From: a virus | Taxonomy: Duplodnaviria; Caudoviricetes | Strand: one strand, 5' to 3' | IMG/VR virus record: IMGVR_UViG_3300044638_005305 | Span: 1 to 63,855 of that record | Length of the DNA: 63,855 bases | Part shown: one piece after another, positions 5,405-63,855 of the stretch | Layout: the number at the start of each line of letters is the position of its first letter | How positions within the stretch are numbered: the stretch's first letter is position 1 | Made by a program: the position numbers and the translations under genes | The notes under the pieces: model-generated | Told to the model about the DNA's origin: nothing | Databases searched by the model: none | Seen by the model: the letters and a program-made list of their open reading frames with translations, nothing else

Positions 5405-5570
5405 CTTCTATCGGTTGGTTTTTAATTAACTCATCATAAAATGCTTTTCTTTCTTGTTCGCTTTCAAAGAAATAGTATTTTTCGCCATCGAAATGACTGC
5501 CAAACTTTGTGTCGGCAATCTCTTTTGGGGAAAATCCGTTGTCTTTAAATATCGCTTCAATTATTATCAT
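5388..5570 (-). CDS. Small tail-fibre-associated protein
   Basis: ATGA overlap with the tail-fibre stop. Confidence 0.55.
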   Translation of the reverse strand: MIIIEAIFKDNGFSPKEIADTKFGSHFDGEKYYFFESEQERKAFYDELIKNQPIEDEIVE

Positions 5571-36905: not shown

Positions 36906-37787
36906 TTAATTTTTCGCATCAACTTCTTTTTTTATCTCTGCAAATACTCCCGTATCGTCTTTGAATTTTAAGAAATTAATCAAAACCTCTACCGCCTCTT
37001 TATCATCTTTGCCATTTGGTATCTTGCAAATCAATGGCTGATTGTAAGACTTTTGCGTAGTTCCCCACACATAGCCTTTTGCATTTCTTACGATAACACC
37101 ATGCTTAATTGCATCGCTTATCAATACTCTCACATCGGCAAGACCATCTTCAAAAATTGCAAAGAAGTCTTGTGGTCTTTCCATTGCCAACTTCTGCAAT
37201 ACCGCTCTCATGTGAGCGTAATCTTCATTAGCAACTGCCAATTCTGCATCTTGGTATCCTCCGGCTCTGTATAGCTTACAAAGTTTTGCTTCGTCAACTT
37301 TTGAATCGTCTGTGATAATTGACATAGCTTTCGCTACCAATTGTCCTCTTTCAAGTTCTTTTTTGTTTTCAGTAGCAAAGTTCTTGATTCTGAAAATAGG
37401 CTTTAGTTCGTGGTCATACTTGCCTTTGTACATTGGATTATCGGCACAATACTTCGAGTTTATCAAAGCGTAGATTAATTCAGCATCCTTTTCTCTGTCC
37501 TTGATAATTTCTCCTTTTATAGAGAATACTTCGGGCTGAAATGATGGGTTTACATGACCATTTACAAAAGGCACTTGATTTTCAGAGTAGATTATTTCTA
37601 CCGAAACGCCCGTATTTGGATTTGTAATGTGGTATCTCATTGGAATACCAAACGTTGAATTAGCTGGCTTGAAACCGCTTGGCGTTAGCCTCCTGCCTTT
37701 GTACTGATTAACCAACTCAAACACCACCTTTTTAGGTAGGTTGCTTGGCAATTCTGCTTGTTTTTTTAATCCGTCAACTAAGAGCAT
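36906..37787 (-). CDS. Conserved hypothetical protein downstream of the capsid gene
   Basis: ORF and position. Confidence 0.7.
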   Translation of the reverse strand: MLLVDGLKKQAELPSNLPKKVVFELVNQYKGRRLTPSGFKPANSTFGIPMRYHITNPNTGVSVEIIYSENQVPFVNGHVNPSFQPEVFSIKGEIIKDREKDAELIYALINSKYCADNPMYKGKYDHELKPIFRIKNFATENKKELERGQLVAKAMSIITDDSKVDEAKLCKLYRAGGYQDAELAVANEDYAHMRAVLQKLAMERPQDFFAIFEDGLADVRVLISDAIKHGVIVRNAKGYVWGTTQKSYNQPLICKIPNGKDDKEAVEVLINFLKFKDDTGVFAEIKKEVDAKN

Positions 37788-46202: not shown

Positions 46203-46326
46203 TGTTGGGATTTGCCAACAATGTAGATTAGTTTACAGGAATAATGTCGGGGAATATCAACATTTGCAAAAACGCAATCTTTGATTATCAATGATTTATG
46301 TCAAAACTTCTCTTAGCCAGTAGTTA
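46203..46326 (+). other. Composite attI/attP-like cassette docking site A
   Basis: TGTTGG-N6-CCAACA (46203), TGTCGG-N6-TCAACA (46245), IHF consensus TATCAATGATTTA (46286), core TTCTCTTAGCCAGTAG|TTA. Confidence 0.75.
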
Positions 46327-46536
46327 TGAGAAATGTTTTGTCAGAGTATCCTCCAACAATTCTATTGCGGTTTCTAATCCACTTTCCATACCATCTCTCC
46401 ATCTTGCTTCACCATCATCAAATGATTGTGTCAGTTGCCTACTTCTTTCAAGTTGGCTTCGTAAATCTACCAAAACACTTCTCATAACAACAGGTTGTTG
46501 CAATGCGGTTTCGGTACTATGTGTTACATCTTCCAT
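46324..46536 (-). CDS. Cassette-encoded hypothetical protein
   Basis: Starts in the attC loop; the stop is the TTA of the core site. Confidence 0.7.
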   Translation of the reverse strand: MEDVTHSTETALQQPVVMRSVLVDLRSQLERSRQLTQSFDDGEARWRDGMESGLETAIELLEDTLTKHFS

Positions 46537-46605
46537 TTTATTTAGTTTTATCTGTTAATAATAGTTTAGTTCATTTAATCCGCACTGACAACAACCTGCG
46601 GTACG
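46324..46605 (+). mobile_element. Gene cassette A1 with attC-like hairpin (46482-46611)
   Basis: Start GTTATGAGAAATGTTTTG is complementary to CAAAACACTTCTCATAAC (46471-46488); arms CAGGTTGTTGCAATGCGG / CCGCACTGACAACAACCTG; closing GTTA at 46605. Confidence 0.8.
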
Positions 46606-46615
46606 TTACAGCCCC

Positions 46616-46852
46616 CTAAAACCCAACATCATACTTGATGCCATGCTTCTCAAACACTTGCTTCATCTTCTCCACAGATACGCCATTAAATCTTATTGGA
46701 CTACTTACCACTTCCTCCTGACACTTCATTAAGTCATCAAGCATTTCGCATTGATGCTTTAATACAATCCCAATAGCTAAATCAGAAAACGCTTCTTTAG
46801 GCATTTCCTCTTTACTTGCAATAGCAAACAAGTTGGCTAATTCCTCTTTCAT
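46616..46852 (-). CDS. Hypothetical protein
   Basis: ATGA-coupled ORF. Confidence 0.65.
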   Translation of the reverse strand: MKEELANLFAIASKEEMPKEAFSDLAIGIVLKHQCEMLDDLMKCQEEVVSSPIRFNGVSVEKMKQVFEKHGIKYDVGF

Positions 46853-47151
46853 GATTCTTTGTTTATGTAGTTATCTAATCGAGTAATTTTACTTTCCTTA
46901 ATCTCATCTACACTCCTATCCAACCCATGAAGCATCAGCCTTAACTGACTACACATTATCTCTACATCAGCTACCTCCTCTGCTATATTTCCCATCCCAA
47001 TAGACGGATTCCTTCTCCACTTATTAATGGCTTGTATCAATTCAGCACATTCCTCTATCGCCATATCCATTTGCGCTCGAACACCAAACTTAAAAATAGC
47101 TTTCTTGTAAATTGTTTCGGAACTATTTTTCATGCCATTTGGTTTTCTCAA
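46849..47151 (-). CDS. MazG-like nucleotide pyrophosphohydrolase
   Basis: AIEECAELIQAINK...IAEEVADVEIM. Confidence 0.85.
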   Translation of the reverse strand: MRKPNGMKNSSETIYKKAIFKFGVRAQMDMAIEECAELIQAINKWRRNPSIGMGNIAEEVADVEIMCSQLRLMLHGLDRSVDEIKESKITRLDNYINKES

Positions 47152-48609: not shown

Positions 48610-49182
48610 ATGAAAACGACAACAACAGGCACAGCGCCACAACTATTTTTAACTGATTATGCAAGTTATAACAACGGCAGCCAGTTTGAGTTTGGGCATT
48701 GGGTTGATTTAACGCAATTTTCAGACGCGGACGAGCTTATGGAATACATAGAAACACACTTCGCGGAATGTGACGAAAAAAGCCCGCTCGATAGCCCACG
48801 CGAGGAAATTATGTTCACAGACTTTGAAGGTTTCCCGAAGTGTTTTTATTCAGAAAGTATGGATACGGATACAATGGAAAAACTTTTTGAATTTATAGGC
48901 ATGGATGAGGACGATAGAAAGTTAATTGAAATGTACGCGGACGCAACAGGATACGATATTTCAGATATTGAACTTTCGCACGCGCAAAATAATTTTCATG
49001 GCACAGCGGACAGCGAAGCGGAATTCGCGGAACGTATGGCGGAGGAATGTGGCGAAATTCCAAAGGATATTCCGGCATGGATAGTAATAGACTGGGAAGC
49101 GTCTTGGAACTGTAATTTGCGCCATGATTATATGACAGCAACAGACGAGGACGGAACGATATATTTTTTCCTTAATCATTAA
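48610..49182 (+). CDS. ardA: Antirestriction protein ArdA
   Basis: YASYNNGS..GHWVDL, EEIMFTDFEGFP, FHGTADSEAEFA, IDWE; highly acidic DNA mimic. Confidence 0.88.
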   Translation: MKTTTTGTAPQLFLTDYASYNNGSQFEFGHWVDLTQFSDADELMEYIETHFAECDEKSPLDSPREEIMFTDFEGFPKCFYSESMDTDTMEKLFEFIGMDEDDRKLIEMYADATGYDISDIELSHAQNNFHGTADSEAEFAERMAEECGEIPKDIPAWIVIDWEASWNCNLRHDYMTATDEDGTIYFFLNH

Positions 49183-53766: not shown

Positions 53767-54981
53767 ATGAGCATCAGAATCAAACTAAGAAAGGACGCGC
53801 CAAACAAACAAGGTCAATATCCAATAGTTTTGGTATATCAAAAAGGCAGGAAAGAAACTATTTTCAGCACAGGCAAATACACCAATGCTGAATTTTTTAC
53901 CCAAGATACACAGAATCCGCTTTCCAGTGGGCAAGACTACAAAGCCAATAACATACTTATCAGAAACTTATACTCAAAACTGAATAACATAGCAGATGGC
54001 TATTTTATGGCAAATAACGAGTATCCGAGCAACGAGTGGGTAAAGTTACAATGGAACACTAAAAACGCTCCAAATCAGCCTGTATTTGATTTCTACGATA
54101 GGTTTATGCAATATCAGCAGACGAGGGGAGCAAGTTCGGTAAGTTATGGTACAGCCATAAACTATAAAAACGTAAAAAATAAACTAATCGGATACGAAAG
54201 AAAGTCCGGGCATCCGATAGCCTTTGAATCATTCAATGAATCTTTTGCCAATAAATTCAGCCAATATCTGATTAAGGAACACGACCTATTACCTAATTCA
54301 GTAGGCGAGAAACTAAAAATCGTAAAAACTTTCCTACGTTGGTGCATAAAACAAGGCGTGAGAATCCCATCAGCTAATTTAGAGGCATTTAGGGGCGGAA
54401 ATGATAAAACATGGAAGCTACATCTAACTATTGAAGATTTGAAGGCTCTTGCCCAAACTAATACGCAATACGAAGAAACTAAAGATGGTTTCCTTTTGCA
54501 ATCTTGTCTTGGAGTGAGGTATTCCGACCTGCAAACTATCGTTTCAACTAAAATAATCAAGGAGGGCGAAGACTTCTACTACATAACCAATACTCAAAAA
54601 ACCAATAAGTTGATTAAGGTGAAGTTGATTGACATGGCTAAAGAGATATTGAACAGAAGAAGCGGAAACTGGATACCATCTAATATCCAAATGAATACAG
54701 AATTAAAACTAATTTTTAAATCTATACGAGGATTTGATGAAATGGTAAGTGTATCGCAGGGTAGTGGAAACTTAAAAAGGGAGCATACAAAACCGAAATA
54801 TGAATTTGTATCAACCCATACAGCAAGGATAAGCTATATCAATATCATGAGAAACTTAGGTGTGGATGATTTTACTATTTCAAACATTACCGGGCAAAGC
54901 CTATCTACTTTGAGAGGATATTATCATTCATCAGCCAAAGATACAGATTCAGCTATGAATGCGCTTAATTTAGCTTTTTGA
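53767..54981 (+). CDS. int: Tyrosine recombinase/integrase (Bacteroidota type: arm-binding, SAM-like and catalytic domains)
   Basis: N-terminal YPIVL..STG arm domain; GVRYSD, TQKT, STHTAR, ITGQ..LRGYY. Confidence 0.92.
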   Translation: MSIRIKLRKDAPNKQGQYPIVLVYQKGRKETIFSTGKYTNAEFFTQDTQNPLSSGQDYKANNILIRNLYSKLNNIADGYFMANNEYPSNEWVKLQWNTKNAPNQPVFDFYDRFMQYQQTRGASSVSYGTAINYKNVKNKLIGYERKSGHPIAFESFNESFANKFSQYLIKEHDLLPNSVGEKLKIVKTFLRWCIKQGVRIPSANLEAFRGGNDKTWKLHLTIEDLKALAQTNTQYEETKDGFLLQSCLGVRYSDLQTIVSTKIIKEGEDFYYITNTQKTNKLIKVKLIDMAKEILNRRSGNWIPSNIQMNTELKLIFKSIRGFDEMVSVSQGSGNLKREHTKPKYEFVSTHTARISYINIMRNLGVDDFTISNITGQSLSTLRGYYHSSAKDTDSAMNALNLAF

Positions 54982-54997: not shown

Positions 54998-55099
54998 TGT
55001 TGCTATTTACCGACTTTTGCTTTTTAAATGTTGGCTTTTACCGACATTTGTTTTTATAAGTTATTGATTATCATTGAAACTTCTCTTAGCCAATAGTTA
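54998..55099 (+). other. Composite attI/attP-like cassette docking site B
   Basis: TGTTGC-N6-CCGACT (54998), TGTTGG-N6-CCGACA (55029), IHF consensus on minus strand (55057-55069), core TTCTCTTAGCCAATAG|TTA; starts 17 bp after the int stop. Confidence 0.78.
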
Positions 55100-55348
55100 G
55101 CGGTCATTGCCTTTCGACCTTGACAGCATATCTGTTATTGCTTTACAATTATTATCAAACTCTTCATCGGACATTTCAGCTATTTCTCTACCTATTTTAT
55201 GTATTTCGCTATTCTCGTCATCTAATGGGTCAATAGATGGCAACGAACCGCTAACACTAAATAAAAGCAATAGCTCGCTTAGTGCTTGTTGAACAGGCAT
55301 CGTGCCTTCATCAACCTTTATCAATATATTTTCAATTTGTTCTTTCAT
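55097..55348 (-). CDS. Cassette-encoded hypothetical protein
   Basis: Starts in the attC loop, reads through the arm (LLLLFSVSGSLP), stops on the core TTA. Confidence 0.7.
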   Translation of the reverse strand: MKEQIENILIKVDEGTMPVQQALSELLLLFSVSGSLPSIDPLDDENSEIHKIGREIAEMSDEEFDNNCKAITDMLSRSKGNDR

Positions 55349-55375
55349 ATCGCTACTGCTTTTATTATTTTACCG
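55097..55375 (+). mobile_element. Gene cassette B1 with attC-like hairpin (55249-55381)
   Basis: GTTAGCGGTCATTGCC vs GGCAACGAACCGCTAAC (55239-55255); arms AATAAAAGCAATAGC / GCTACTGCTTTTATT; GTTA at 55375. Confidence 0.8.
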
Positions 55376-55755
55376 TTATAAGCAAACGGTAGCTACTTTG
55401 AAACAGTCTGATTAATTTTCCTTATAGTCATTACTACTTCATTCCATTCATTATTTAATTCAGGGCAAATTTTAGCTATATCTATTCCTTTTAATGCACA
55501 TTCGTTAAATAATGGCGCTAATTCTTTTTCTCTGCTTTCTAATGATTTTAAAGCCCATCCTTTAGTAAACATATCTACTTCGCTTTGCTCATCGTTTAAT
55601 ATTTTAATTGAATATTCTATCCAGTCTTTCATATTTTTATTGTTTTTTAAATTAATTTTTCATAGTAACATTCGTAACCGTCAGCTTATAACAGCACCTA
55701 ATAAACAGGCGGACATCTACTAGGTTTCCACCGCCCGTCTATTAGCTGCAAAACG
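55376..55755 (+). mobile_element. Gene cassette B2 with attC-like hairpin (55686-55761)
   Basis: GTTATAAGCAAACGGT vs ACCGTCAGCTTATAAC (55677-55692); arms CTAATAAACAGGCGG / CCGCCCGTCTATTAG; GCAAAACGTTA at 55755. Confidence 0.82.
55393..55632 (-). CDS. Cassette-encoded hypothetical protein
   Basis: Entirely inside cassette B2. Confidence 0.7.
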   Translation of the reverse strand: MKDWIEYSIKILNDEQSEVDMFTKGWALKSLESREKELAPLFNECALKGIDIAKICPELNNEWNEVVMTIRKINQTVSK

Positions 55756-55771
55756 TTATCTGAATGACTTC

Positions 55772-55832
55772 TCATACCTTATCGGGTATAATTCAAGCTA
55801 ATGAATGATATATCATACCCGTCAGGGTATAA
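55772..55832. repeat. Pair of palindromic boxes TCATACC-N6-GGTATAA
   Basis: 55772-55791 and 55813-55832, 41 bp apart. Confidence 0.7.
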
Positions 55833-55889
55833 ACTGCAGATTTTTATCCAAATACTGAATCCCTATCTTTAAATCTGCTTATCCATAAC

Positions 55890-57689
55890 TCAAAAGCACC
55901 AGTCTGGATAATCTTCATCTTTTTTGTTTTCAATTAGCTTTGCCATAGGGTCACCACTTTCAAATACAAACCTCCTAAATCCTCTATGAAGATTAAAAAT
56001 AGCAATTCCTTTTTTACCTACTACTTTTTGCCGTCTTATTTTTTTAGTGTGAAACTCGCAGACCGTTGAATCTGGATTCTTTTGGTGTTCTGGTCTGTGA
56101 TATACCAATATATTATCCATTTTATTATTCCACATCGCTCCATCCGCAATATCAAATACATCTGGACATGGATAATTGCCAGTTGAATCCTTAACCATCA
56201 TTTTTGGGTGCGCTACAATAAAAAAGTAAATATTGTTTTGTTGAGCAAATCGGCTGCAATCAGCTAAAAAGGTTTCTAAATATTTATCAGAGCGACCTCC
56301 GCTTTTTGCGTATTCATTTGTCATTTGATTAAAAGGGTCAATTATGCATCCGCTAACCTTTTCCTTAATCACTAATTCCAAAAATCTTTCTTTGATGTAT
56401 TCAGGGGTCGGACTTATTTCTTTTGGATATACGTAGAAAAAATGCTTTGATAGTTCGTCATAAATCCGCTCGTATTCGCTTCTGCTAACTCTGTAATTTG
56501 AATCGGGTGTTAATTTCATTCCGCAATATATTTCTACTAAATCATGATAAAATTCATGAGCGGGGTTATCCTCTGGAGAAAACAATGCAAATTTTTCCTT
56601 ATATAGGATAACCCTCATAAGCATATACCACTTCAAAAAAGTTGATTTTCCATAGTTTCCTATTCCAGTCAATAAAGTTATTTCACCTCTTTTTAGCTTA
56701 AAATGACTATCAATATCCTCAACTCCTATTCCATACAATTGTTCATAACCACTGTCATAAATTTTCAAAGCATCAGCCTTCACATCTTCGCCAAAAATTA
56801 CATCTTTAGGTTTTATGTCAGGATTAAAAATATCAGCATCAATTTCTATTTCTTTTCGATTAACCTTTTCAACAAGCACTTCTCTTTCAAATTGAGCCGT
56901 TCCATATTTGGATTTGTTTTGTCGGTATGCAGATTTTACTACTCTTTCTAATTCTGAAAATGGAAAAGAATCACCACCGATTTGAAATTCAAAAGCGCAT
57001 AAAGAAATAGTATCACTTTCGGCTATTCCAAACCTACAACAAGCCCCAGCAAGTTTAAAAAGGAATATATTTCTTTCACCAGTTGCAAATGCGTTCCCTT
57101 TGTTTATTTGCCATTTTAATAACTTTTGGAAACTTTCTGCATAATTACTCCGCTCATAGGTTGTTTGTTGCTCTATTGCCTTAATTTTGCGAAACACGCT
57201 TGGGTTTTCAGCTATGTATATTTCAGGGTCGTAACTTTCATAACACACACGAGATTCATTTATGCCTGAATTGTCTATTTCAGTGAATAATTCTTTTAAT
57301 GCCTGAAAATGCTCACGATGCTTTTTGCCGTCCGCTATTTTTACAAGCGCCTTTAATCCGTTTCCACTTGGTGAAATCCAACAAGCATAAATAAACTCAT
57401 TTGCACACAATAAAGATTTTTCATGATTAACATCATCTAAATTATCAAAGTCTAAACAAATTAGCTTTGAATGATTAATCAGTCCAATATCCGTTCTTTC
57501 TTTAAATTCGCCTGAGAAACAAACACTCGGTAGGTTCTGTTTTAGCTTATTGCTACGCTCTTTGTCAAGTTGCGTTCTAATTTCATCAATCTTTTCTTTT
57601 GACTTACCAATTCTTATTCGCTCCAAAGCCTTTTCAACTGGAATGTAATTTGGTGTTTTGTCAAAAATGTTTTTGTATATAGTTACCAT
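55890..57689 (-). CDS. Primase-helicase (BT4734/VirE-N primase, PriCT, DnaB/Twinkle-like helicase)
   Basis: ICLDFD, ISPSGNGLK, GERN, TGIGNYGKST, IIDPFN, VAHP. Confidence 0.9.
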   Translation of the reverse strand: MVTIYKNIFDKTPNYIPVEKALERIRIGKSKEKIDEIRTQLDKERSNKLKQNLPSVCFSGEFKERTDIGLINHSKLICLDFDNLDDVNHEKSLLCANEFIYACWISPSGNGLKALVKIADGKKHREHFQALKELFTEIDNSGINESRVCYESYDPEIYIAENPSVFRKIKAIEQQTTYERSNYAESFQKLLKWQINKGNAFATGERNIFLFKLAGACCRFGIAESDTISLCAFEFQIGGDSFPFSELERVVKSAYRQNKSKYGTAQFEREVLVEKVNRKEIEIDADIFNPDIKPKDVIFGEDVKADALKIYDSGYEQLYGIGVEDIDSHFKLKRGEITLLTGIGNYGKSTFLKWYMLMRVILYKEKFALFSPEDNPAHEFYHDLVEIYCGMKLTPDSNYRVSRSEYERIYDELSKHFFYVYPKEISPTPEYIKERFLELVIKEKVSGCIIDPFNQMTNEYAKSGGRSDKYLETFLADCSRFAQQNNIYFFIVAHPKMMVKDSTGNYPCPDVFDIADGAMWNNKMDNILVYHRPEHQKNPDSTVCEFHTKKIRRQKVVGKKGIAIFNLHRGFRRFVFESGDPMAKLIENKKDEDYPDWCF

Positions 57690-58273
57690 CCTGTATCTCC
57701 TTCTAAAATTGATTTTGCAATATTGCTTTTCGGTGTTATAGAATCAGACTTTATCCATTCAGCATTGAATCCTGACCAACTCTTATTTACACACATATAT
57801 AAAACATAATCTACACTCATGCCACTTTTTTCTATTTCAGACAAAAAAGAATTTAAAGCTGTTTTAGTGTTTGTAGCCTTTTTGGTTTTCCTCACTCTCA
57901 ACCAATCCTCTACTAAATCTTTATTTTCTGCAAGTTTTAATAATTCAGACTTAAAATTAAACATATCTTTCTCTTTCTCTTTCTCTTTCTCTTTCTCTTG
58001 TAGCAAAGGGTCTTGTGTACCCCCTTGCGCACCCCCTTGCGTAGGGGTTAATTTTATTCCACTCTTGTCTTCATAACCTTTTACTTGGGAATCAATATTA
58101 TGCTTTTGAGATATGTATGCAAACTTAGCCATTCCATTTAAAATAGGCTCGATACCAAAAAATTGTTTATTAATTACAGCATCATAAAAAGCAAGTCTAT
58201 CTTTATCAGATAACTCGTTGGCTACATCCATATAACTTTTAAAAAATTTGAAAGCTAATCTATGTGTTGTCAT
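57683..58273 (-). CDS. Phage replication initiator (DUF6291-like N-terminus)
   Basis: FKFFKSY..LSDKDRLAFYDAV, EKEKEK linker, C-terminal WLRVRK...WSGF; precedes the helicase. Confidence 0.7.
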   Translation of the reverse strand: MTTHRLAFKFFKSYMDVANELSDKDRLAFYDAVINKQFFGIEPILNGMAKFAYISQKHNIDSQVKGYEDKSGIKLTPTQGGAQGGTQDPLLQEKEKEKEKEKDMFNFKSELLKLAENKDLVEDWLRVRKTKKATNTKTALNSFLSEIEKSGMSVDYVLYMCVNKSWSGFNAEWIKSDSITPKSNIAKSILEGDTGW

Positions 58274-58378
58274 ATAATAAAAAAGCCCCCTTTGTAGTAG
58301 TGCTTACATTGGGGGCATTAGAGCCTAAAATCAAATTCCATCAGGCACTACTCTCATGGAAATCTTATTGCAAATATA
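58274..58378 (-). promoter_or_regulatory. Promoter plus attenuator-like leader of the replication genes
   Basis: TATATTTG; GCCCCC/GGGGGC+T6 terminator whose loop GCACTACT is complementary to an upstream loop AGTAGTGC. Confidence 0.65.
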
Positions 58379-58382
58379 ACTT

Positions 58383-58661
58383 TTATTCTTTAGTATCTAA
58401 ATTTTTATCCAAAAAAGATTTATAAATAATTGAATACCCAGCTAAATCTTTCAAAGTATCTGCTATGCTTTCGTTCTTAGCTTGTTTACCTTGCAAATTT
58501 CGCAGCCTTGCAACTTTAATAGCTATCATTACCATAAAGACCTTTTCCACGTCTATTTGGGCATAATCAGCAGCAAATTCAAATACTTCAAATTCTTTGC
58601 CGTAGTCGTGACCTTTTGAAAGTAAGGTCGCTTCGAGTTGTTTTAGGTTTTCTGCTATCAT
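58383..58661 (-). CDS. Nucleotide-modification-associated (DUF1599/Nmad-like) protein
   Basis: KGHDYG...KVARL...ESIADTLKDLAGY. Confidence 0.75.
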   Translation of the reverse strand: MIAENLKQLEATLLSKGHDYGKEFEVFEFAADYAQIDVEKVFMVMIAIKVARLRNLQGKQAKNESIADTLKDLAGYSIIYKSFLDKNLDTKE

Positions 58662-59065
58662 TTTGTTTGCATTTGCAACTCTTCGCCAGTTAAAGCAAAG
58701 TAAATGTTTTGAAGTTGGTGTAAGTATTGGATTTTAGATGCACAACTAAACCAGTTTAAATTATCTTTATTTTCTTGAATAAATAAATTTGTTTTAAGGT
58801 TTTTATCTGCAAAAATAGCAATACTATCTTTAATAAAACTGCCATCTAAATCTTTTTCAAACCTGAACTTCAAAAGCCATTCATCTGTTACTGGAATGGG
58901 CTTTATTTGCTTTAGGCTAAAACAGCCAATACTTTTATTGTCCTTTAATAACCTAACAGTATTATCACATTGTAAGCTATGTATTGGTAAATCAAATTCC
59001 ATGTACTCATCGTTTATTATACAAAGTGTAACAAGATTACCAATTCGAAATTCGTTTAATTTCAT
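58658..59065 (-). CDS. Hypothetical protein
   Basis: EFRIGN..IKPIPVTDEWLLKF..IQYLHQLQNIYFALTGEEL. Confidence 0.8.
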   Translation of the reverse strand: MKLNEFRIGNLVTLCIINDEYMEFDLPIHSLQCDNTVRLLKDNKSIGCFSLKQIKPIPVTDEWLLKFRFEKDLDGSFIKDSIAIFADKNLKTNLFIQENKDNLNWFSCASKIQYLHQLQNIYFALTGEELQMQTK

Positions 59066-59073
59066 ATATTTTT

Positions 59074-59310
59074 TTATTTGGTTAAGTATTCAAGTTCTTT
59101 AATTCGATTCTCAATAGTGTTTCTTAACCCGCTACTAAATCGGAATTTAAATGTCATTTGGCGCAGTCGGTTACAATCTGTAACTTCCGATAGCTTAACT
59201 CCTTTTAAATCGCCAAAATCAAAAACAAAGTCGGATTTTAGATTTTCGATTTCGTTGCCAATTACATCAAAGGCAATTAGCTTGTTGGAAATTCTTTTGA
59301 CTTTATACAT
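59074..59310 (-). CDS. Hypothetical protein
   Basis: Packed ORF; FGDLKGVKLSEV. Confidence 0.6.
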   Translation of the reverse strand: MYKVKRISNKLIAFDVIGNEIENLKSDFVFDFGDLKGVKLSEVTDCNRLRQMTFKFRFSSGLRNTIENRIKELEYLTK

Positions 59311-59725
59311 TGTGTTTTTTTTGTTTGTCTAAAAACCATTGAGGGATTTCTCGGGATGCGTTTTCGTACTTTTTCACTCCCATAGAGTTAATGACTTTTT
59401 CATCATCGCCTATATACAATACAATCTTATATACCAATTGATTATCATTTTCATCATCCCAAAAATAAGCCATTTCACCAATTTGTAACGGAGGTTCTGC
59501 ATCTATTGGAGTAAATCCGCCTTTTTCGAGTGAGTATTCAAACAAAGATAATATAGGAGATTTTGAACCCAAATGAGTACGTCCTGTTTCATCATAAATA
59601 TCATCAAGCCCCATATCATCAAACCACACTAAATAAGAGTAATCCTCTTCATAGTGATTGAGTTTTACCTCACCCCATCCATACCTCACATCAAATACCT
59701 TAGTTCCGATTTCTAATTTCTTCAT
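59303..59725 (-). CDS. Hypothetical protein
   Basis: GTKVFDVRYGWGEV SH3-like start. Confidence 0.7.
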   Translation of the reverse strand: MKKLEIGTKVFDVRYGWGEVKLNHYEEDYSYLVWFDDMGLDDIYDETGRTHLGSKSPILSLFEYSLEKGGFTPIDAEPPLQIGEMAYFWDDENDNQLVYKIVLYIGDDEKVINSMGVKKYENASREIPQWFLDKQKKHNV

Positions 59726-59726
59726 T

Positions 59727-59984
59727 TTATTTTGTTTTAGTTGTGAATAATTTTCTTAATGATTTCCTATCAGTAGATTTCATTTGATACTCATAATAAT
59801 ATCCTGCAGTTCCGTATCTGGTCTTAAATTTAATCTTTTTTCTTTTGCAGTAAAATTTGTGTTTGCGCTCCAGTTCGTCAATTCGAGTTGGCAGTTTGAC
59901 AGTTCCAAATTCTTTGACTCCTTTTAAAGTTGTTAACACTTCGCCCGAAAGCAAGGCGTTGAAAATCGCTTGTTTTTGTGTCAT
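59727..59984 (-). CDS. Winged-helix protein
   Basis: ALLSGEVLTTL...LPTRIDELE. Confidence 0.65.
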   Translation of the reverse strand: MTQKQAIFNALLSGEVLTTLKGVKEFGTVKLPTRIDELERKHKFYCKRKKIKFKTRYGTAGYYYEYQMKSTDRKSLRKLFTTKTK

Positions 59985-60242
59985 TTAATTGATTTTATGG
60001 TTTAAAAATATGTCTATTGAAAGTTTATCCGAATAATTAAAAAGCATTTCCAAATCCATCTTTTTTTTCGATTCAAATTCTATGATTCTCCACCTGCCAA
60101 CATTTAACCAGTTAGCCATAAATGATTGTGTGAATCCTGCACTATCTCTTAAATGTCGGCAATCGTCAACAATCTTGTTGTAATTATCTTTGAATTGTTG
60201 GTAATTCTCGACATGGTTATTTTCTAAATCGTTGGTATCCAT
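59985..60242 (-). CDS. XRE-like HTH protein overlapping docking site C
   Basis: LRDSAGFTQSFMANWLNVGRWRIIEFES. Confidence 0.7.
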   Translation of the reverse strand: MDTNDLENNHVENYQQFKDNYNKIVDDCRHLRDSAGFTQSFMANWLNVGRWRIIEFESKKKMDLEMLFNYSDKLSIDIFLNHKIN

Positions 60243-60278
60243 AGGTTTGGTTTAAAACATTCTCTTACCCAATAGTTA
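60154..60278 (+). other. Composite attI/attP-like cassette docking site C
   Basis: TGTCGG-N6-TCAACA (60154), TGTTGG-N6-TCGACA (60196), IHF-like box (60225-60237, one mismatch), core TTCTCTTACCCAATAG|TTA. Confidence 0.75.
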
Positions 60279-60665
60279 GCGGAAATGCCGTTTTTAGGCA
60301 TCCCACTTTATTAAGTCCTTCACTTCTTCAATGGCTTGTTCTAAAGTTTCTCCGTTACCTAAAAATGCTTCTGTATTATAGGTTCGTCCAAACTCCGCAA
60401 CTATTCTTATTACTTGCTCTTTAGAAAAAACGGCACTATCCGCTAACATAGGGTTGGAAGAAATTTTAAATGCTTTCAGTGCTTCGATTACCGCCTTTGC
60501 TTCATTGTAGCTAATCAAAATACCTTCTTGCATTCCCCAGCTTACATCATGCATATTCTCGCCTTCTTTTTCCGCAAAGGCTACGCTTTTCTCTAATCTT
60601 TTAATTAAGTGTTCCATATTTATATTTTTGTTAAGCATTTAAAACTATCTCCAACCCTCGTAACG
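60276..60665 (+). mobile_element. Gene cassette C1 with attC-like hairpin (60441-60671)
   Basis: GTTAGCGGAAATGCCGTTTTT vs AAAAACGGCACTATCCGCTAAC (60426-60447); arms AGGGTTGGAAGAAATTTTAAATGCTT / AAGCATTTAAAACTATCTCCAACCCT; GTTA at 60665. Confidence 0.82.
60294..60617 (-). CDS. Cassette-encoded hypothetical protein
   Basis: Starts in the attC loop and reads through the arm (NPMLADSAV). Confidence 0.7.
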   Translation of the reverse strand: MEHLIKRLEKSVAFAEKEGENMHDVSWGMQEGILISYNEAKAVIEALKAFKISSNPMLADSAVFSKEQVIRIVAEFGRTYNTEAFLGNGETLEQAIEEVKDLIKWDA

Positions 60666-60887
60666 TTATAAGCCATTTTGTAAATCCTTACACATCATTT
60701 CACAAGCCTTGCCAAATCCTACTGCAAAGCTATTTGCTTTCTCTTGTGCCATTTCATCACTACCATACAAGCTAACAAAGTGCTTTTGTAGTTTAATCAA
60801 ATTTTCACCAGAAAAACGGCTTATAACATCAGTTATAAGTAATGGCTGGCTTTGTGGTTTATCAATGTTTTTTGCTTCTATTGTCAT
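60666..60887 (-). CDS. Cassette-encoded hypothetical protein
   Basis: Starts in the attC loop (PLLITDVISRF); stop on the core TTA. Confidence 0.7.
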   Translation of the reverse strand: MTIEAKNIDKPQSQPLLITDVISRFSGENLIKLQKHFVSLYGSDEMAQEKANSFAVGFGKACEMMCKDLQNGL

Positions 60888-60943
60888 TTGTTCTAAATTT
60901 AAAGTGAGTAGTTCTAATCAGCCACTACTCATAGCTGTAACCG
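60666..60943 (+). mobile_element. Gene cassette C2 with attC-like hairpin (60821-60949)
   Basis: GTTATAAGCCATTTT vs AAAAACGGCTTATAAC (60812-60827); arms CAGTTATAAGTAATGGCTG / CAGCCACTACTCATAGCTG; GTTA at 60943. Confidence 0.82.
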
Positions 60944-60959
60944 TTACATCGAAATCCGC

Positions 60960-61394
60960 TTAATTAATACTCGCCACTATCTCACCAATATAATCTCTAA
61001 TCTTCTCGGTGTATTTGCCATCGAATTTTAAATCTGCTGCTATCCTATCTCTGCCATTAATCACACTTGCATGATGTCTATTATTTAATTTTCCTAATTC
61101 AGTAACAGTCAATCCGCAATGCTTATAAGCAAGATAAAAGTGGATATGTCTTGCCATTACAATATTAGTAAGCCTTGATGTACCTTTTAATTTTTCAAGT
61201 GAAATTTCGGTAACTTTTGAAACAATCTTTAGTAACTCATCATGCTTTACGACATTGTTTTTTACGTCTTTTGGCTGTGGCTTTTTTTTGCCAACCATAA
61301 AATGGATATGTGAAAATGTCTTAGGCTCAAATTCCTTTTCGTAGAATCTTGAAAATGTTACTTGTTTACGTCTGTTTATGATTTGCATACCCAC
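60960..61394 (-). CDS. DnaA C-terminal (domain IV)-like HTH protein
   Basis: LKGTSRLTNIVMARHIHFYLA...LTVTELGKLNNRHHASVING. Confidence 0.85.
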   Translation of the reverse strand: MGMQIINRRKQVTFSRFYEKEFEPKTFSHIHFMVGKKKPQPKDVKNNVVKHDELLKIVSKVTEISLEKLKGTSRLTNIVMARHIHFYLAYKHCGLTVTELGKLNNRHHASVINGRDRIAADLKFDGKYTEKIRDYIGEIVASIN

Positions 61395-62116
61395 GCTGTT
61401 TTATCGTTAATAATTACTTCACCATCCCAGTTCACCCAGTTAATGTCTTTTAGCTTTTGATACCTTTTTTTACTAACAAACTGCATGTAAAAAAATTCAT
61501 CTTCATCCATTATTTTGGCGTTCCTTAATAGTTCATCTGCAACTCCGATTAAAGGATATTTTTCTTCACACGTTGCTAAAATCTTATCGCACGTTTCTTC
61601 ATCTTTTGGAACTTCATGAATGTAAAACCTTTCTTCCAAAGGGAACGGATATTCACTCCAATCATCTTGCCCGAATTCTTCTGGCTTAGTTAAATAGTTA
61701 ATCAGATAACCATAATCAACATTCAATGCCATCATTTGAACTTGTAATTGAAGATAGTACTTTTTAGCCAATTTATCGCACTGTTCAAAGTAGTTGAATA
61801 TTGAGTATTGACATTTAGAATCTGCAACCCATTTGCCCTCTAAAATAGCGTCAGGCGTAGCTCCAAGTTTATCATTCACTTTATAAAATGTTTGATTTGG
61901 CTCACCCCCATAAATAGAGGTGAGTATTTCAATTGCCGTTACTTCATTTACTATTCCATGCAACATTGGTTTTGTGCTGATTTCTTTTTTAAGTCCGTTT
62001 AAGTTTTCGGCTATTTCAAAGATATAGTTCAAAGCTGTTTTACCTTGACCACCTGCCATTAAATCCCCGATTCTACTTGCACTAAAGAAACCTTTTTTAT
62101 TATTTTGATTTATCAT
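61376..62116 (-). CDS. YqaJ/lambda-exonuclease-like recombination nuclease
   Basis: FSASRIGDLM, MLHGIVNE, LGATPDA, DSKC, YYLQLQVQM. Confidence 0.85.
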   Translation of the reverse strand: MINQNNKKGFFSASRIGDLMAGGQGKTALNYIFEIAENLNGLKKEISTKPMLHGIVNEVTAIEILTSIYGGEPNQTFYKVNDKLGATPDAILEGKWVADSKCQYSIFNYFEQCDKLAKKYYLQLQVQMMALNVDYGYLINYLTKPEEFGQDDWSEYPFPLEERFYIHEVPKDEETCDKILATCEEKYPLIGVADELLRNAKIMDEDEFFYMQFVSKKRYQKLKDINWVNWDGEVIINDKTAWVCKS

Positions 62117-62675
62117 GTTTGCTTCTTTTATTATTTTTCATCATTGACAAATAGCCTTTTGAAACCTTATAAATTTTCATTATTTCAGATGGCTTAATTT
62201 TTTCTAAAATCATTCTTTTCATATTTTCAATTTCGCAATCTTTAAATTTATGAAAGTTGCATTTTTCGCCTTTTCGTGGATTCCTAAACAATCCCATCCC
62301 TTTTGTGCATTTACCTAACACTATATACGAATGCTTTTCATTTTCAGAATAAGTAACCCATTCCAAATTTTCAACCCTATTATCTGTTTTTATGCCATTT
62401 ATATGATTCACACATGGTTTATTTTCAGGATTTATTATAAAAGATTGAGCAACAAGCCTATGTACATTTTTTGTGTTTTTTTTACCCAAACAACAAGCTA
62501 AATATGTATTTTTTGTCCTTAGGGATAATTTTAGTATCTTTTCTTTTGACTTTCTAAAAAAGTTATTTTTGGTTTTAATAAATCGGGATAACGATTTTAT
62601 CCTTCCTAAATTACTAACCTCGTACTTGCCTTCATATCCTAAAATAGGCTTCCAAATTTCTTTTTGTTTTTTCAT
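62100..62675 (-). CDS. NUMOD4-HNH homing endonuclease
   Basis: EIWKPILGYEGKYEVSNLGRIKS, VHRLVA, VNHINGIKTDNRVENLEW. Confidence 0.92.
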   Translation of the reverse strand: MKKQKEIWKPILGYEGKYEVSNLGRIKSLSRFIKTKNNFFRKSKEKILKLSLRTKNTYLACCLGKKNTKNVHRLVAQSFIINPENKPCVNHINGIKTDNRVENLEWVTYSENEKHSYIVLGKCTKGMGLFRNPRKGEKCNFHKFKDCEIENMKRMILEKIKPSEIMKIYKVSKGYLSMMKNNKRSKHDKSK

Positions 62676-62792
62676 AAAAAATACCCACAAACATTACAAA
62701 GGCAATCCAGTCGAGCAGATACGCTCAAAAGGCAATGTAACGAATGTGGGATTTTTTAAATGTTTTCATAACTGGATTGCATTGCAAATATA
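62676..62792 (-). promoter_or_regulatory. Promoter plus attenuator-like leader of the HNH gene
   Basis: TATATTTG; GCAATCCAGT/ACTGGATTGC pairing competes with the long CCCACA/TGTGGG stem ending in T6 at the ATG. Confidence 0.6.
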
Positions 62793-62840: not shown

Positions 62841-63062
62841 TTATTTTCCATTGCATTCAGGGTTTTCGTTAAAAGACCTCCAGTTAGCTCCATTTACCAT
62901 TCTTTCCTCTATGCCATTTAGATAGTATGATTTTTGCATTAAAATTTCGTATTCAATAGCGTTTTCAACATAAAAATCAATTATAGATTTAGACATACAG
63001 TCTTTAGGCAAATATTTCTTAATGCTTTCATAAAGCATTTCCGATGCTGTTCTATTTTCCAT
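62841..63062 (-). CDS. Hypothetical protein
   Basis: Overlaps the SSAP stop; its 5' part is repeated at 1-81. Confidence 0.65.
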   Translation of the reverse strand: MENRTASEMLYESIKKYLPKDCMSKSIIDFYVENAIEYEILMQKSYYLNGIEERMVNGANWRSFNENPECNGK

Positions 63063-63855
63063 TTAGTTCGATTTTACGTTTAGTGAATAATGCCTTTGAT
63101 TTGCTTTGTTCAACAGGAAGTAAAGAATCGTAAAGCAGTCCTAATTCGTCAAGGTTATTGCATTTTGATAGCTTTTCTTTTATCAGTTCTAAATCAACTT
63201 CTACTTCAATCATTGGCAAATCTTCACCTGAGTAGATATAAAGCCCAAGTCCAAACATTGCAAGATTCTTAACTAAGCATCTCATAATTGCTGTGTTAAT
63301 ATCAAACATTGTGGCAGGGGTAACATCCTTATTAAATTTCTGATATACAACGTGCTTTTGCGCTCTGTTCGCGCCATCCATTACGGGCAATTGCATCGGG
63401 ATTGTTTCGCCATCAATAGTTACTTCTGTTTGAACCAAGTACCCTAAGTTTTCATCGAATAGGTAAGGTTTGCCATCAAAGTTTACAACTCTGTAATTTG
63501 CAGTTGCATAGCGTTTTTTGACCTCATTCCATGCCCACGACCAGCTAAGGTAAGAGAGTCCGTTTTTCTTTTCAATTTTGTCGGCACAATCTACCGAGCC
63601 TAATGTTTCAAATACTGTTTTCATTTGGTTTATTTGATTAATGCTGCAATCAAGATTACAGCGGTGAATAATAAAAAGTAAATAGCTAATTGAGCAATCC
63701 AACCCAACGAGCAAAAGTATTTAAGGAATCTCATACTCCTGGTCTAAATGTATCGGAAGTATTACACTCTCTGTAATATTCCGTATTGGAATTAAGAATA
63801 TCAATATCTTCTTTGAACTCTTTTGCTAAATGCTTTTCAGCTATAAGGATTCTCC
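62982..63855. repeat. Imperfect terminal overlap, copy 2 (Sak/Rad52-like allele)
   Basis: Same flanks as 1..850 with a different central gene body. Confidence 0.95.
63052..63624 (-). CDS. Sak/Rad52-like (DUF1071) single-strand annealing protein
   Basis: IEKKNGLSYLSWSWAW, LPVMD, DINTAIMRCLVKNLAMFGLGLYIYSGEDLP. Confidence 0.9.
   Translation of the reverse strand: MKTVFETLGSVDCADKIEKKNGLSYLSWSWAWNEVKKRYATANYRVVNFDGKPYLFDENLGYLVQTEVTIDGETIPMQLPVMDGANRAQKHVVYQKFNKDVTPATMFDINTAIMRCLVKNLAMFGLGLYIYSGEDLPMIEVEVDLELIKEKLSKCNNLDELGLLYDSLLPVEQSKSKALFTKRKIELNGK

Follow-up and report, generated by a model that had tools for sequence, protein, structure and literature searches.

The DNA analysed here, referred to as the window, is the whole of record IMGVR_UViG_3300044638_005305 (63,855 nt), whose source is lake-water metagenomes. 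Its phage appears to be of the Flavobacteriia type, as suggested by a primase weakly similar to those of Flavobacterium, Cellulophaga and Maribacter phages (all below 60% identity, 26-38% among the matches listed). Five small genes sit in five cassettes that form three short arrays, at 46323-46605 (cassette A), 55096-55755 (B and E) and 60275-60943 (C and D). Each cassette consists of two units: H1, in which cargo lies between arms complementary to each other (GTTR... and ...YAAC, 10-24 nt), and H2, an attC-like stem-loop with imperfect arms L'' and L'. On the plus strand the order is TT, H1, H2, a spacer (about AAAC) and a G that forms the next G/TT junction, where the slash marks the crossover. 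In its common long form, H2 measures 112-122 nt, and its loop holds the start codon and an N-terminal module of 25-35 aa. A conserved 20-nt motif ending in ...TAG/TTA precedes every array; its three copies in the window compare with 0.01 expected, none of 100 shuffles reached three, and array starts in related contigs have the same ...TAG/TT junction. The features are as follows.

46307-46326, plus: array-start motif copy A (CTTCTCTTAGCCAGTAG/TTA), the attI-like left junction of array 1; one mismatch against copy B
46323-46605, plus: cassette A; H1 46323-46488 (arms GTTATGAGAAATGTTTTG and CAAAACACTTCTCATAAC), H2 46489-46604, L'' 46491-46511, L' 46577-46598, junction G 46605
46324-46536, minus: ORF A, 70 aa; starts in the H2 loop, runs through L'' and the TAAC core (..QQPVV/MRSV..), stops on the core TTA
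53767-54981, plus: tyrosine integrase of the Bacteroidota phage/CTn type (Arm-DNA-bind_5 and Phage_int_SAM_5), adjoining array 2; not an integron integrase
55006-55050, plus: two direct repeats TTTACCGAC(T/A)TTTG (55006-55019 and 55037-55050) between the integrase and motif copy B
55080-55099, plus: array-start motif copy B, from the motif search
55096-55375, plus: cassette B; H1 55096-55255 (arms GTTAGCGGTCATTGCC and GGCAACGAACCGCTAAC), H2 55256-55374, L'' 55260-55274, L' 55352-55366, junction G 55375
55097-55348, minus: ORF B, 83 aa; N-module (aa 1-33) in the H2 loop and L'' arm, 'VSG' at the core GTTAGCGG, C-module in the cargo, stop on the core TTA
55375-55755, plus: cassette E; H1 55375-55692 (arms GTTATAAGCAAACGGT and ACCGTCAGCTTATAAC), short H2 55693-55754 (62 nt), last junction G 55755
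55393-55632, minus: ORF E, 79 aa; wholly in the cargo, clear of the hairpin at 55693-55754
60259-60278, plus: array-start motif copy C; kept in relatives L009, L011 and L015, just upstream of the ATG of an 85-aa gene (59985-60242)
60275-60665, plus: cassette C; H1 60275-60447, long H2 60448-60664, L'' 60450-60475, L' 60633-60658
60294-60638, minus: ORF C, 114 aa; starts in the L' arm rather than the loop proper, reads the core in another frame (..M/LADS..)
60665-60943, plus: cassette D; H1 60665-60827 (arms GTTATAAGCCATTTT and AAAACGGCTTATAAC), H2 60828-60942, L'' 60830-60848, L' 60919-60937
60666-60887, minus: ORF D, 73 aa; starts in the H2 loop, crosses the core (..DV/ISRF..), stops on the core TTA

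An initial annotation, made from the letters alone, had described all five ORFs as minus-strand frames that run against the usual polarity of cassettes and in the direction of the phage operons. The coordinates of A, B, E, C and D bear this out, and the four peptides that it singled out lie on the minus strand at 46474-46500 (QQPVVMRSV), 55238-55267 (LLFSVSGSLP), 60429-60455 (NPMLADSAV) and 60813-60839 (LITDVISRF). The stretch it had delimited, 55097-55755, is exactly cassettes B and E, from the first T after G 55096 to the last-junction G 55755. Four ORFs were said to start in the attC loop, which is right for A, B and D; ORF C begins inside the L' arm. All four do cross the L'' arm and the ...TAAC core, and A, B and D stop on the core TTA, as proposed. 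The recombination structure is thus also coding sequence, and the observation of antisense ORFs that read through attC-like hairpins is confirmed. One statement fell, namely that the site where a cassette integrates determines its stop: the TTA, or a stop located 12-25 nt deeper, sits on the cassette side of G/TT (offset 1 for ORFs A, B and D; 19 nt for C and 18 nt for E inside the cassette). Because the crossover is at G/TT, the stop codon is cassette-borne and travels with the cassette.

Cassette anatomy and strand bias

The window has 16 arm pairs anchored on GTTR and YAAC; in 20 shuffles the mean was 3.6 and the maximum 11. With an added hairpin test, 6/16 pass, five being the cassettes that adjoin the motif. 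The sixth, 60453-60655, was dropped because its apparent arms are the L stem of the hairpin in cassette C itself. None of nine arm pairs elsewhere in the genome passes. Our wider catalogue holds 43 non-redundant cassettes from 17 sequences and is conditional on our own detector (arm score at least 10, L-stem score at least 8). AAC and GTT boxes are present at 43/43 sites by construction of the detector, and were confirmed independently by homology breakpoints. The core is GTTA at 38 sites and GTTG at 5; the boxes match GTTR and YAAC only, not the full GTTRRRY and RYYYAAC, and positions 5-7 depart from RRY or RYY (e.g., GTTAGCG, GTTATAA). L stems scoring at least 8 occur at 43/43 sites with asymmetric spacers (5', 1-4 nt; 3', 5-8 nt), and classical extrahelical G or T bases were not identified as such at any of the 43. 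Rfam searches returned no match anywhere in the window.

The arms of a cassette pair with each other, with a mean score of 12.1 over 41 distinct pairs, compared to 4.7 with the arms of another cassette (1% reaching 10) and 4.4 between R'' and the R' of the next cassette. Arrays open with H1 and close with H2: H1 is followed by H2 48 times, versus 26 in the reverse reading, a control that is informative only at array ends and cannot tell the strands apart inside arrays because H1 and H2 alternate there. The minus-strand ORF is the longer one in 37/43 cassettes, crosses the YAAC core in 32/43, ends within 25 nt of G/TT in 39/43 and stops on the core TTA in 14/43.

Both stem types are biased towards pairing of the minus strand. 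R stems contain 36 A.C mismatches on the plus strand, equivalent to G.T on the minus strand, versus 2 plus-strand G.T, and 28 of the 36 occur at position 11; among L stems, mismatches that favour minus-strand pairing outnumber the converse by 50 to 16. DNA folding energy is lower for the minus strand at 4/4 sites, with a large margin only at cassette E (-17.7 kcal/mol, z -4.9, versus -8.4, z -1.2), the sole fold beyond all 200 shuffles; at cassette A the values are -16.4 and -13.7 kcal/mol. Since the minus strand is the mRNA strand too, the G.T bias is equally compatible with RNA structure and with bottom-strand DNA.

Cassette exchange and the recombinase

Related contigs lose homology to the window exactly at G/TT junctions, precise to the base and with only 4-8 bases shared. 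For relatives L009-L016, the breaks fall at 55753, 60278 and 60939-60960, and homology with L016 resumes at 55753, near the end of cassette E. Slot 3 is empty in L014 and elsewhere holds one to four other cassettes. Homology breakpoints, the empty slot and the order at array ends place the crossover between G and TT of R', as at attC. Cassette B, a 286-nt unit, recurs at 98-100% identity in five contigs (L017-L021), one of which is a complete phage of 169 kb that has direct terminal repeats. Homology starts at 55094/55096 and ends at 55380-55399, with breakpoints at 55096 and 55375-55381, and cassette B is the sole cassette-region DNA that these loci of about 5 kb have in common with the window; L021 additionally matches window 57829-57926 over 99 nt (76%). 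The exact breaks, the empty slot and the shared cassette sustain the initial view of the units as mobile cassettes with attC-like sites. GenBank phages gave a single match to window 55000-61400 (129 nt) and contained no relative of ORF B, and GTDB genomes contained neither a relative of the 144-aa backbone gene nor an exact match to a 32-nt N-module pattern.

Two other roles for the start motif were considered and rejected. Reading its three copies as attL/attR-type repeats of an integrated element leaves the hairpins and slot 3 unexplained, and may still hold for the 46.3-55.1 kb block; as a promoter, the motif did not fit, by eye, the Bacteroidetes -33/-7 consensus.

The H1 units could themselves be miniature terminal-inverted-repeat elements or invertible segments that act at inverted GTTR boxes, with H2 a mere target or spacer. 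Their ends are indeed 10-24-nt inverted arms starting with GTTR, and H1 is exchangeable without its H2, as in cassette C, which has H1 in common with L015 (60275-60467, 84%) next to a different H2. L029 likewise carries the arms of cassette D, identical and around cargo of the same 163-nt length that is unrelated in sequence. However, arm sequences vary between units (41 distinct pairs), we saw neither a transposase nor a target duplication, arrays always close with H2, and cassette B moves as H1 plus H2, its six copies (the window's included) keeping one orientation throughout. We therefore regard elements of this kind as distinctly unlikely and continue with cassettes exchanged as whole units at G/TT.

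In NCBIfam, the window integrase matched only XerC, at 19.8 bits. Neither the 5 other cassette-bearing records nor the 32 fetched loci contain a homologue of it, and in L016 a NinG-like gene takes its place while one direct-repeat copy and the motif are kept. The direct repeats at 55006-55050 are possibly arm-type sites. In 5 cassette-bearing records, of which two are complete, the integron integrase model TIGR02249 gave no match above cut-off; one Xer-like match in G004 scored 78 bits. With PF00589, even the integrase of the window went undetected in a scan of five records, so that its negatives are uninformative. No intI lies beside the attI-like motif in the window, the arrangement that defines a complete integron. 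The contrast with a typical integron drawn in the initial annotation stands for the reversed gene polarity and needs qualifying otherwise, an integron integrase not having been found.

These observations also bear on a conventional account in which the ORFs are ordinary small phage genes with mRNA structures and mosaicism arises through homologous or short-homology Sak/YqaJ recombination, with no site-specific cassette mechanism. The better-folding strand is the transcribed one and its wobbles are G.U-compatible, the 5' UTR contains the L' arm directly before the ATG, the phage codes for a Sak annealing protein and a YqaJ exonuclease, and no dedicated recombinase emerged from the records and loci searched with TIGR02249 and the window integrase. 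Against it, the G/TT junctions are exact to the base, and their 4-8 shared bases would be too short for annealing-type recombination; the unit of 286 nt is common to otherwise unrelated DNA, and one slot is empty. Each arm pairs with one at the opposite end of its own cassette, so that the stem encloses half of the coding sequence, and a role in the mRNA hardly accounts for such an arrangement. Finally, the integron integrase IntI1 recombined one attC site of Polaribacter phage P12002L, a published phage CALIN (cluster of attC lacking integrase; Qi et al. 2023, PMC9892861), which has the same anatomy in our own scan, although the recombined site may not be one of the scanned H2 units. On balance we consider the conventional account unlikely and a site-specific cassette mechanism the better explanation.

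Minus-strand coding and module combinations

The five cassette ORFs have no Pfam or PHROG family match, and plus-strand ORFs exceed the minus-strand ones in cassettes A (86 versus 70 aa) and D (84 versus 73 aa), as they do in 6/43 catalogued cassettes. On these grounds, the minus-strand ORFs might not be genes at all, the sites being non-coding attC and the real genes lying on the plus strand. Nucleotide changes, however, are in excess at third positions of the minus frame. Variable sites in the ORF-B N-module are distributed 2/3/8 over codon positions, with 7/12 variable codons synonymous, and differences between the cargo of cassette C and L015 are distributed 10/3/20, patterns that support translation of the minus-strand ORFs. 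Relatives or clusters with conservative changes were found for ORFs B (103), A (62) and E (15 representative clusters at E<=1e-3), and an Atlas search with ORF C gave sub-threshold leads only. The plus-strand ORF of D is riddled with stops in L029. In relatives, every long cassette gene (206-293 aa) is encoded by the minus strand, and the larger cassettes there carry a gene that reads as a DNA methyltransferase. Plus-strand coding thus seems hardly credible, and we take the minus-strand ORFs to be the genes.

If the core joins two coding parts, homologues should be mosaic there, a check that had been set beforehand for the TAAC junction. The outcome was large-scale mosaicism: among 103 relatives of ORF B, 70 have the N-module, 45 the C-module and 13 both. 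The N-module is joined to 28 unrelated C-terminal groups and the C-module to 18 N-terminal groups, always at 'VSG' (GTTAGCGG), and all 28 C-terminal partner groups are in frame, each running to a stop in its own R' arm. The C-module of ORF A, with 62 database relatives, is joined to at least 10 different N-termini. These combinations are recombination of existing, conserved modules. An AF2 model of ORF B consists of two helical hairpins with a lower-confidence linker at the junction (pTM 0.37).

Most relatives come from short-read metagenome contigs, those of ORF B mostly of 0.5-5 kb, and B-type H2 is 88-95% identical between different cassettes. Some module combinations could therefore be assembly chimeras at the repeated H2. 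Were the combinations, as distinct from the cassettes, largely assembler misjoins across this repeat of about 118 nt, they would hardly recur as they do, several mosaic proteins being present on many contigs (e.g., 22, 12, 10 and 5), nor would all 28 partner groups be in frame up to a stop in their own R' arm. The isolate P12002L provides further evidence against misjoins, as its genes gp37, gp42 and gp60 start in H2 and cross the core, with related junction peptides in gp58 and gp60. We judge a predominantly artefactual origin to be very improbable and the module combinations to be largely genuine.

Proposed mechanism and comparison with known systems

Taken together, the data make it likely that the five small genes sit in integron-like mobile cassettes with reversed polarity, hairpin-coded N-modules and module shuffling. 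We propose that whole cassettes would be exchanged at G/TT beside the attI-like motif (...TAG/TTA), with recombination presumably acting on the folded bottom strand, as at attC. Since the bottom strand carries the gene, its 5' end is where the attC-like hairpin is found. Translation would begin in the H2 loop and proceed through the L'' arm and the core into the C-module of the cargo, ending at a stop inside the cassette's own R' arm. H2 types are common to many cassettes and homology breaks at the YAAC core, hence the many combinations of N- and C-modules; the predicted outcome is a DNA-level, in-frame shuffling of modules in small phage accessory proteins. Exchanges at the YAAC core may be rarer events that involve the other strand or the other R box, the enzyme could be supplied by the host or be an unrecognised phage protein, and the cassette proteins are perhaps accessory or counter-defence factors.

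The polarity is reversed here, and the hairpin belongs to the gene, which receives from it a start codon and a folded N-terminal module. Cassette biology would thereby generate combinatorial protein diversity directly, as illustrated by one N-module with 28 partner groups and one C-module with 18. In addition, attC-type cassettes would represent an abundant mobile gene pool in phages of a phylum, the Bacteroidetes, in which integrons have been reported to be rare (PMC9024848, available text), which raises the question of the moving enzyme. More tentatively, and with a confidence that falls somewhat short of probable, we suggest that Flavobacteriia phages run a hairpin-guided recombination with two junctions and without an integron integrase, in which cassettes are exchanged at G/TT and N- and C-modules are swapped in frame at the YAAC core. 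If true, these phages would have a natural 'exon shuffling' at the DNA level, one that keeps producing new small proteins of two modules, with a probable role in host takeover or counter-defence and with the core fixed in them as a linker of the 'V-S-G' type.

The usual description of an integron cassette is a gene that lacks a promoter and has a non-coding recombination hairpin behind it. The window resembles integrons and CALINs in its hairpin boxes (..AAC and GTT..), its G/TT crossover and its arrays beside a common junction site, as well as in cassette starts that are complementary to their own inverse core and a bottom strand that folds better. In contrast to the integron arrangement, in which the ORF is on the top strand and upstream of attC, 5/5 window ORFs are on the bottom strand, as are the genes of 37/43 catalogued cassettes, and the loop codes for the start codon and N-terminal module. 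The sites differ from integron attC in R pairing over 10-24 bp, a conserved G.T at position 11 and the retention of GTTR and YAAC only. Sedentary chromosomal integrons, such as those with the Vibrio cholerae repeats, hold many cargos, each with a near-identical, lineage-specific attC, and a conserved attC of this type is by itself enough to make homology break sharply at the inverse core. That attC is, however, non-coding and 3' of the gene, whereas H2 in the window provides the 5' UTR, the start codon and about 33 residues. Because H2 supplies protein residues, cassettes with a common attC type here also have a protein module in common.

For a recombination site that doubles as coding sequence, a precedent exists in ORF-11 and ORF-18 of the class 1 integron attI1, where, in the text available to us, a short frame spans the crossover and the GTTRRRY core of the inserted cassette gives the stop (PMC8876359). 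As described there, these are sense-strand leaders of 11-18 aa in attI that couple translation of the first cassette, rather than fused modules or parts of attC. In T4-type phages, PeSL stem-loop repeats flank small variable genes of hyperplastic regions and have been proposed to mediate modular shuffling (PMC2839356, PMC4122927). The accessible portions of these papers present PeSLs as intergenic promoter and terminator motifs and report them neither in coding sequence nor with G/TT junctions; the window stems, mostly inside coding sequence, fit this model poorly. Within the openly accessible articles that we covered, we found no description of antisense genes coded through attC or of shuffling at the inverse core.

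The CALIN phages of PMC9892861 and the present cassette family both have DNA methyltransferases among their cargo, according to the available part of that paper, which describes no antisense genes, coding through the site or module shuffling. In our scan of the cultured P12002L (NC_028924), the same anatomy appears as 9 H1 units at about 29.2-40.8 kb, where all annotated CDS are on the minus strand. With a cultured phage-host pair of the same anatomy, the acting recombinase, possible circular cassettes and the predicted fusion proteins are therefore testable at the bench.

Cassette plan and mobility

The window contains three cassette arrays, at 46323-46605 (cassette A), 55096-55755 (B and E) and 60275-60943 (C and D). 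A 20-nt motif, CTTCTCTTAGCCAATAG|TTA, occurs three times in the window (46307, 55080 and 60259; 0.01 copies expected), and variable DNA follows directly after each copy. Read on the plus strand, every unit begins with a common G|TTR, and its first 10-24 nt pair with a downstream stretch ending in YAAC to form the arms that bound the cargo (H1, the R stem). An imperfect, attC-like stem-loop, L''/L' (H2), lies 1-4 nt past H1, and a spacer of 5-8 nt, mostly ending in AAC, ACC or TAC, leads from L' to the next G|TT. Since arrays always begin with H1 on the motif side and finish with H2 (48, against 26 in the reversed reading), we define the cassette as H1 plus H2 on the plus strand. This is the layout of a canonical top-strand integron cassette, but here the gene occupies the opposite strand:

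46324-46536, minus strand: ORF A
55097-55348, minus strand: ORF B
55393-55632, minus strand: ORF E
60294-60638, minus strand: ORF C
60666-60887, minus strand: ORF D

The initial annotation, centred on 55097-55755 (a range containing two minus-strand ORFs, B and E), had described antisense genes built into the recombination hairpin, and its counts were correct: four of the five ORFs start in the hairpin and cross the core, and three stop on the core TTA. Starts fall in the H2 loop (A, B and D), in the L' arm (C) or inside H1 (E); A, B and D stop on the core TTA, C and E 19 and 18 nt further in. Its suggestion that the integration position fixes the stop proved wrong, because the stop lies on the cassette side of G|TT and thus travels with the cassette rather than being set by the landing site.

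For a wider catalogue, a detector (GTTR/YAAC-anchored arms scoring at least 10, followed by an L stem scoring at least 8 and ending 1-9 nt before GTTR) was applied to the window and 16 further loci, leaving aside L019 and L028 (duplicates of L018 and L027), L013 (which repeats L012), and L010 and L014 (no filled slot). Removing two spurious matches and four exact duplicates from 49 left 43 cassettes, a set conditional on the detector. The spurious matches lay at window position 60453, where the L stem of cassette C's hairpin had been taken as arms, and at L021:614. Elsewhere in the window, none of nine arm pairs passed the L-stem test. The reversed gene polarity noted initially turned out to be general: the minus-strand ORF exceeds any plus-strand ORF in 37 of the 43 cassettes, and all nine units of phage P12002L share this polarity. 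The ORF crosses the YAAC core in 32 cassettes, takes up 70% or more of the cassette in 35, and stops no further than 25 nt from G|TT in 39, using the core TTA itself in 14. Starts are located in the H2 loop (24), H1 (11), the L' arm (3), L'' or the spacer (3), or beyond L' (2). H2 measures 112-122 nt in 29 cassettes, with unrelated sequences; in 12 it is exactly 118 nt. Core-crossing ORFs occur in 27 of 31 cassettes with a long H2 versus 5 of 12 with a short one. The arms are cassette-specific: pairs score 12.1 on average with their own partner and 4.7 with the arm of another cassette (1% reaching 10), and R'' scores 4.4 against the start of the next cassette, equivalent to the 4-base core alone.

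Comparisons, most of them with metagenome contigs, indicate that the cassettes are genuinely mobile. The neighbouring 144-aa DnaA_C-like gene led to eight related virus contigs that have the window's backbone in common; their homology to the window ends precisely where junctions were predicted (55753, 60278 and 60939-60960). These breakpoints are independent of the detector. Slot 3, the site of the third array, is empty in L014 (..TAGCCAGTAA|TTAATTAATACTC). Reading gave cassette counts for this slot of one (L016), two (L011), three (L009, L015) and four (L012), where the detector caught 1, 2, 3, 3 and 2, respectively. The slot-3 ORFs include three minus-strand ones with products of 206, 261 and 293 aa, the last of which, judged by eye, looks like a C5 DNA methyltransferase. 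The whole of cassette B (55096-55381) recurs at 98-100% identity in five other contigs (L017-L021), one of them a record of 168,934 bp that is rated complete and has direct terminal repeats. Across the ca. 5-kb loci around these copies, B is the sole cassette-region DNA in common with the window, and its neighbours differ in each context; L021 additionally has one 99-nt stretch at 76% to 57829-57926.

Two short stretches adjoin the arrays. Positions 55756-55842, after the last array-2 junction, begin TTATCTGAATGAC and form a small hairpin; the stretch recurs at 85% in slot 3 of L012/L013 between two G|TT, like a tiny gene-less cassette. The window copy lacks a clear G|TT on its right. The other stretch, 16 bases long (TTACATCGAAATCCGC, 60944-60959) and possibly a cassette remnant, separates the final G|TT of array 3 from backbone TTAATTAATACTCG. 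It also occurs in L011; in L009, L015 and L016 G|TT is joined straight to backbone.

Coding modules and their exchange at the core

The minus-strand ORFs behave as real genes by several indications. Across eight copies of the hairpin-encoded N-terminal part of ORF B (the N-module), 2 variable sites fall in first, 3 in second and 8 in third codon positions, with synonymous changes in 7 of 12 variable codons, and the cargo of cassette C differs from its L015 homologue at 10, 3 and 20 sites, respectively. The protein collection holds 103 relatives of ORF B, 62 of ORF A and, for ORF E, 15 representative clusters; Pfam and PHROGs gave no match for any of the five. An AlphaFold2 model of ORF B built from 17 aligned relatives (mean pLDDT 84, pTM 0.37) places helices at residues 2-14 and 19-29 and, after a lower-confidence stretch, at 48-58 and 61-77, a prediction of two modules with the linker at the recombination core.

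The idea that ORF halves shuffle at the TAAC junction was borne out when this check was run, with N-modules and cargo-encoded C-modules of B relatives variously combined. Among the 103 relatives, the N-module of B occurs in 70, the C-module in 45 and both in 13; 28 unrelated C-terminal groups, many with CxxC...CxxC, follow the N-module, and 18 N-terminal groups precede the C-module, an HTH_17 domain being present in one. Every join reads VSG(S), that is GTT AGC GG, the core on the minus strand. Likewise, at least 10 different N-termini precede the C-module of ORF A (VMRSVL...), with the joint at ..QQP(V/A)|V. In cassette C the core is translated in another frame (M-L-A-D); what stays constant is thus the site in the DNA and not a linker in the protein.

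The same exchange is visible in the DNA. Cassette B, the first L012 cassette and the L016 slot-2 cassette have H2 and the first ca. 33 codons in common, with unrelated cargos between matched arms of their own (GTTAGCGG/CCGCTAAC, GTTAGTGG/CCACTAAC and GTTGTAGG/CCTACAAC, respectively), and seven more loci match the window only at 55243/50-55379/85 (88-95% identity). L015 retains H1 of cassette C with a different H2, and L029 has the arms and exact length of cassette D around an unrelated cargo. In chromosomal integrons many cargos share one attC type, and part of the mosaic would follow simply from this arrangement. What appears new is that a common attC type is at the same time a common protein module. 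For a single cargo to be combined with many H2 types, exchange at the core or close to it is required; this might occur through recombination of the other strand or at the other R box.

Folding strand, integrase and phage setting

Mismatches in the stems are biased. Besides 596 Watson-Crick pairs, 41 distinct R stems contain 36 A.C oppositions on the plus strand (G.T wobbles on the minus strand) versus 2 G.T, and 28 of the 36 fall at position 11 from the stem base, a near-constant minus-strand G.T. In 39 L stems the corresponding numbers are 635, 50 and 16. In DNA folding, the minus strand came out lower in energy than the plus strand at each of the four sites tried (difference 1.2 to 9.3 kcal/mol), with a large margin only at cassette E's site (minus -17.7 kcal/mol, z -4.9; plus -8.4, z -1.2), where the minus-strand fold pairs the core boxes, followed by a 4-nt bulge and the L stem. 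Such a bias would be expected if, as at attC, the bottom strand were the substrate. An mRNA structure would account for it just as well, the minus strand being also the sense strand.

The integrase encoded in the window is of the Arm-binding Bacteroidota type, not IntI, and lies in a block with further genes:

46849-47151: MazG-like gene
48610-49182: anti-restriction-like gene (phrog_2059)
53767-54981: integrase

Homologues of the integrase were absent both from five other cassette-bearing records (two of them complete) and from all 32 loci, 250 kb in all. A TIGR02249 search of five cassette-bearing records returned one sub-threshold Xer-like gene, in G004, and nothing else. Integrons are reportedly rare in Bacteroidetes (PMC9024848). 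The motif copies before A and B, together with a preceding TTGATTATCA(A/T)TGA, form ca. 40-nt direct repeats (46296-46326 and 55060-55099) enclosing an 8.8-kb block (46.3-55.1 kb) that ends in the integrase and two arm-like repeats. Possibly the block is an element that inserted at the motif; in L016 and L004 a NinG-like gene replaces the integrase.

The 63,855 bp are the entire virus record (GC 36%; IMG/VR class linear, 90% complete), and public runs with this region are lake-water metagenomes. Its ends match each other (1-193 and 611-850 versus 62982-63174 and 63616-63855, 95-98% identity; the middle part of the repeats, 1-850 and 62982-63855, is divergent). Because of this repeat and a related contig that continues from ca. 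63.2 kb into position 1, the genome may be circularly permuted or terminally redundant, or two population variants may have been joined by assembly. Genes outside the cassettes include:

55890-57689, minus strand: primase-like protein (BT4734-like_N and PriCT_1 domains)
60960-61394: DnaA_C-like HTH protein (144 aa), adjoining array 3
61376-62116: YqaJ-type exonuclease, beside array 3
62100-62690: HNH homing endonuclease ORF (NUMOD4 and HNH_3)
63052-63714: Sak single-strand annealing protein, beside array 3

The nearest named relatives of the primase-like protein come from Flavobacterium, Cellulophaga, Maribacter and Tenacibaculum phages, none reaching 60% identity (26-38% among the matches listed). 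It and a second minus-strand ORF (5567-7366) are each exactly 599 aa, with no mutual DNA similarity. The DnaA_C-like, YqaJ-type and Sak genes make up a module for phage recombination that neighbours the cassette slots. The related contig behind L007/L009 lacks segment 62101-62823, in keeping with a homing insertion.

Relation to known systems

Qi et al. 2023 report 17 CALINs in phages, one in Polaribacter phage P12002L, for which they note “attC sites with divergent directions” and recombination of one attC site by IntI1 on the bottom strand only (PMC9892861). Our scan of P12002L (NC_028924) gave nine H1 units between 29.2 and 40.8 kb that show the window's arm pattern, seven followed by an H2 hairpin. 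The annotated CDS are on the minus strand; those of gp37, gp42 and gp60 begin within H2 and read through the core. A 77-nt repeat (29172-29248 and 37198-37274; 97% identity) precedes two separate cassette arrays, resembling the three motif copies in the window. The junction peptide AFSLN(A/G)V is common to gp58 and gp60. Given the same H1/H2 anatomy, the window system appears to be of the same kind as the published phage CALIN.

Precedents exist for parts of this design: ORF-11/ORF-18 of attI1 for a coding frame across an integron crossover with a core-supplied stop (PMC8876359), and PeSLs of T4-type phages for stem-loop-mediated shuffling of small phage genes. In the literature searched, no account was found of antisense genes whose coding sequence runs through attC, or of modules being shuffled at the inverse core. 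The original observation is confirmed and its interpretation largely right, reaching further than could be seen from the sequence alone; for the proposed creation of de novo genes we found no evidence. The data point to a known kind of element, the phage-borne attC cassette, here with reversed gene polarity and a coding hairpin that would yield combinatorial two-module proteins.
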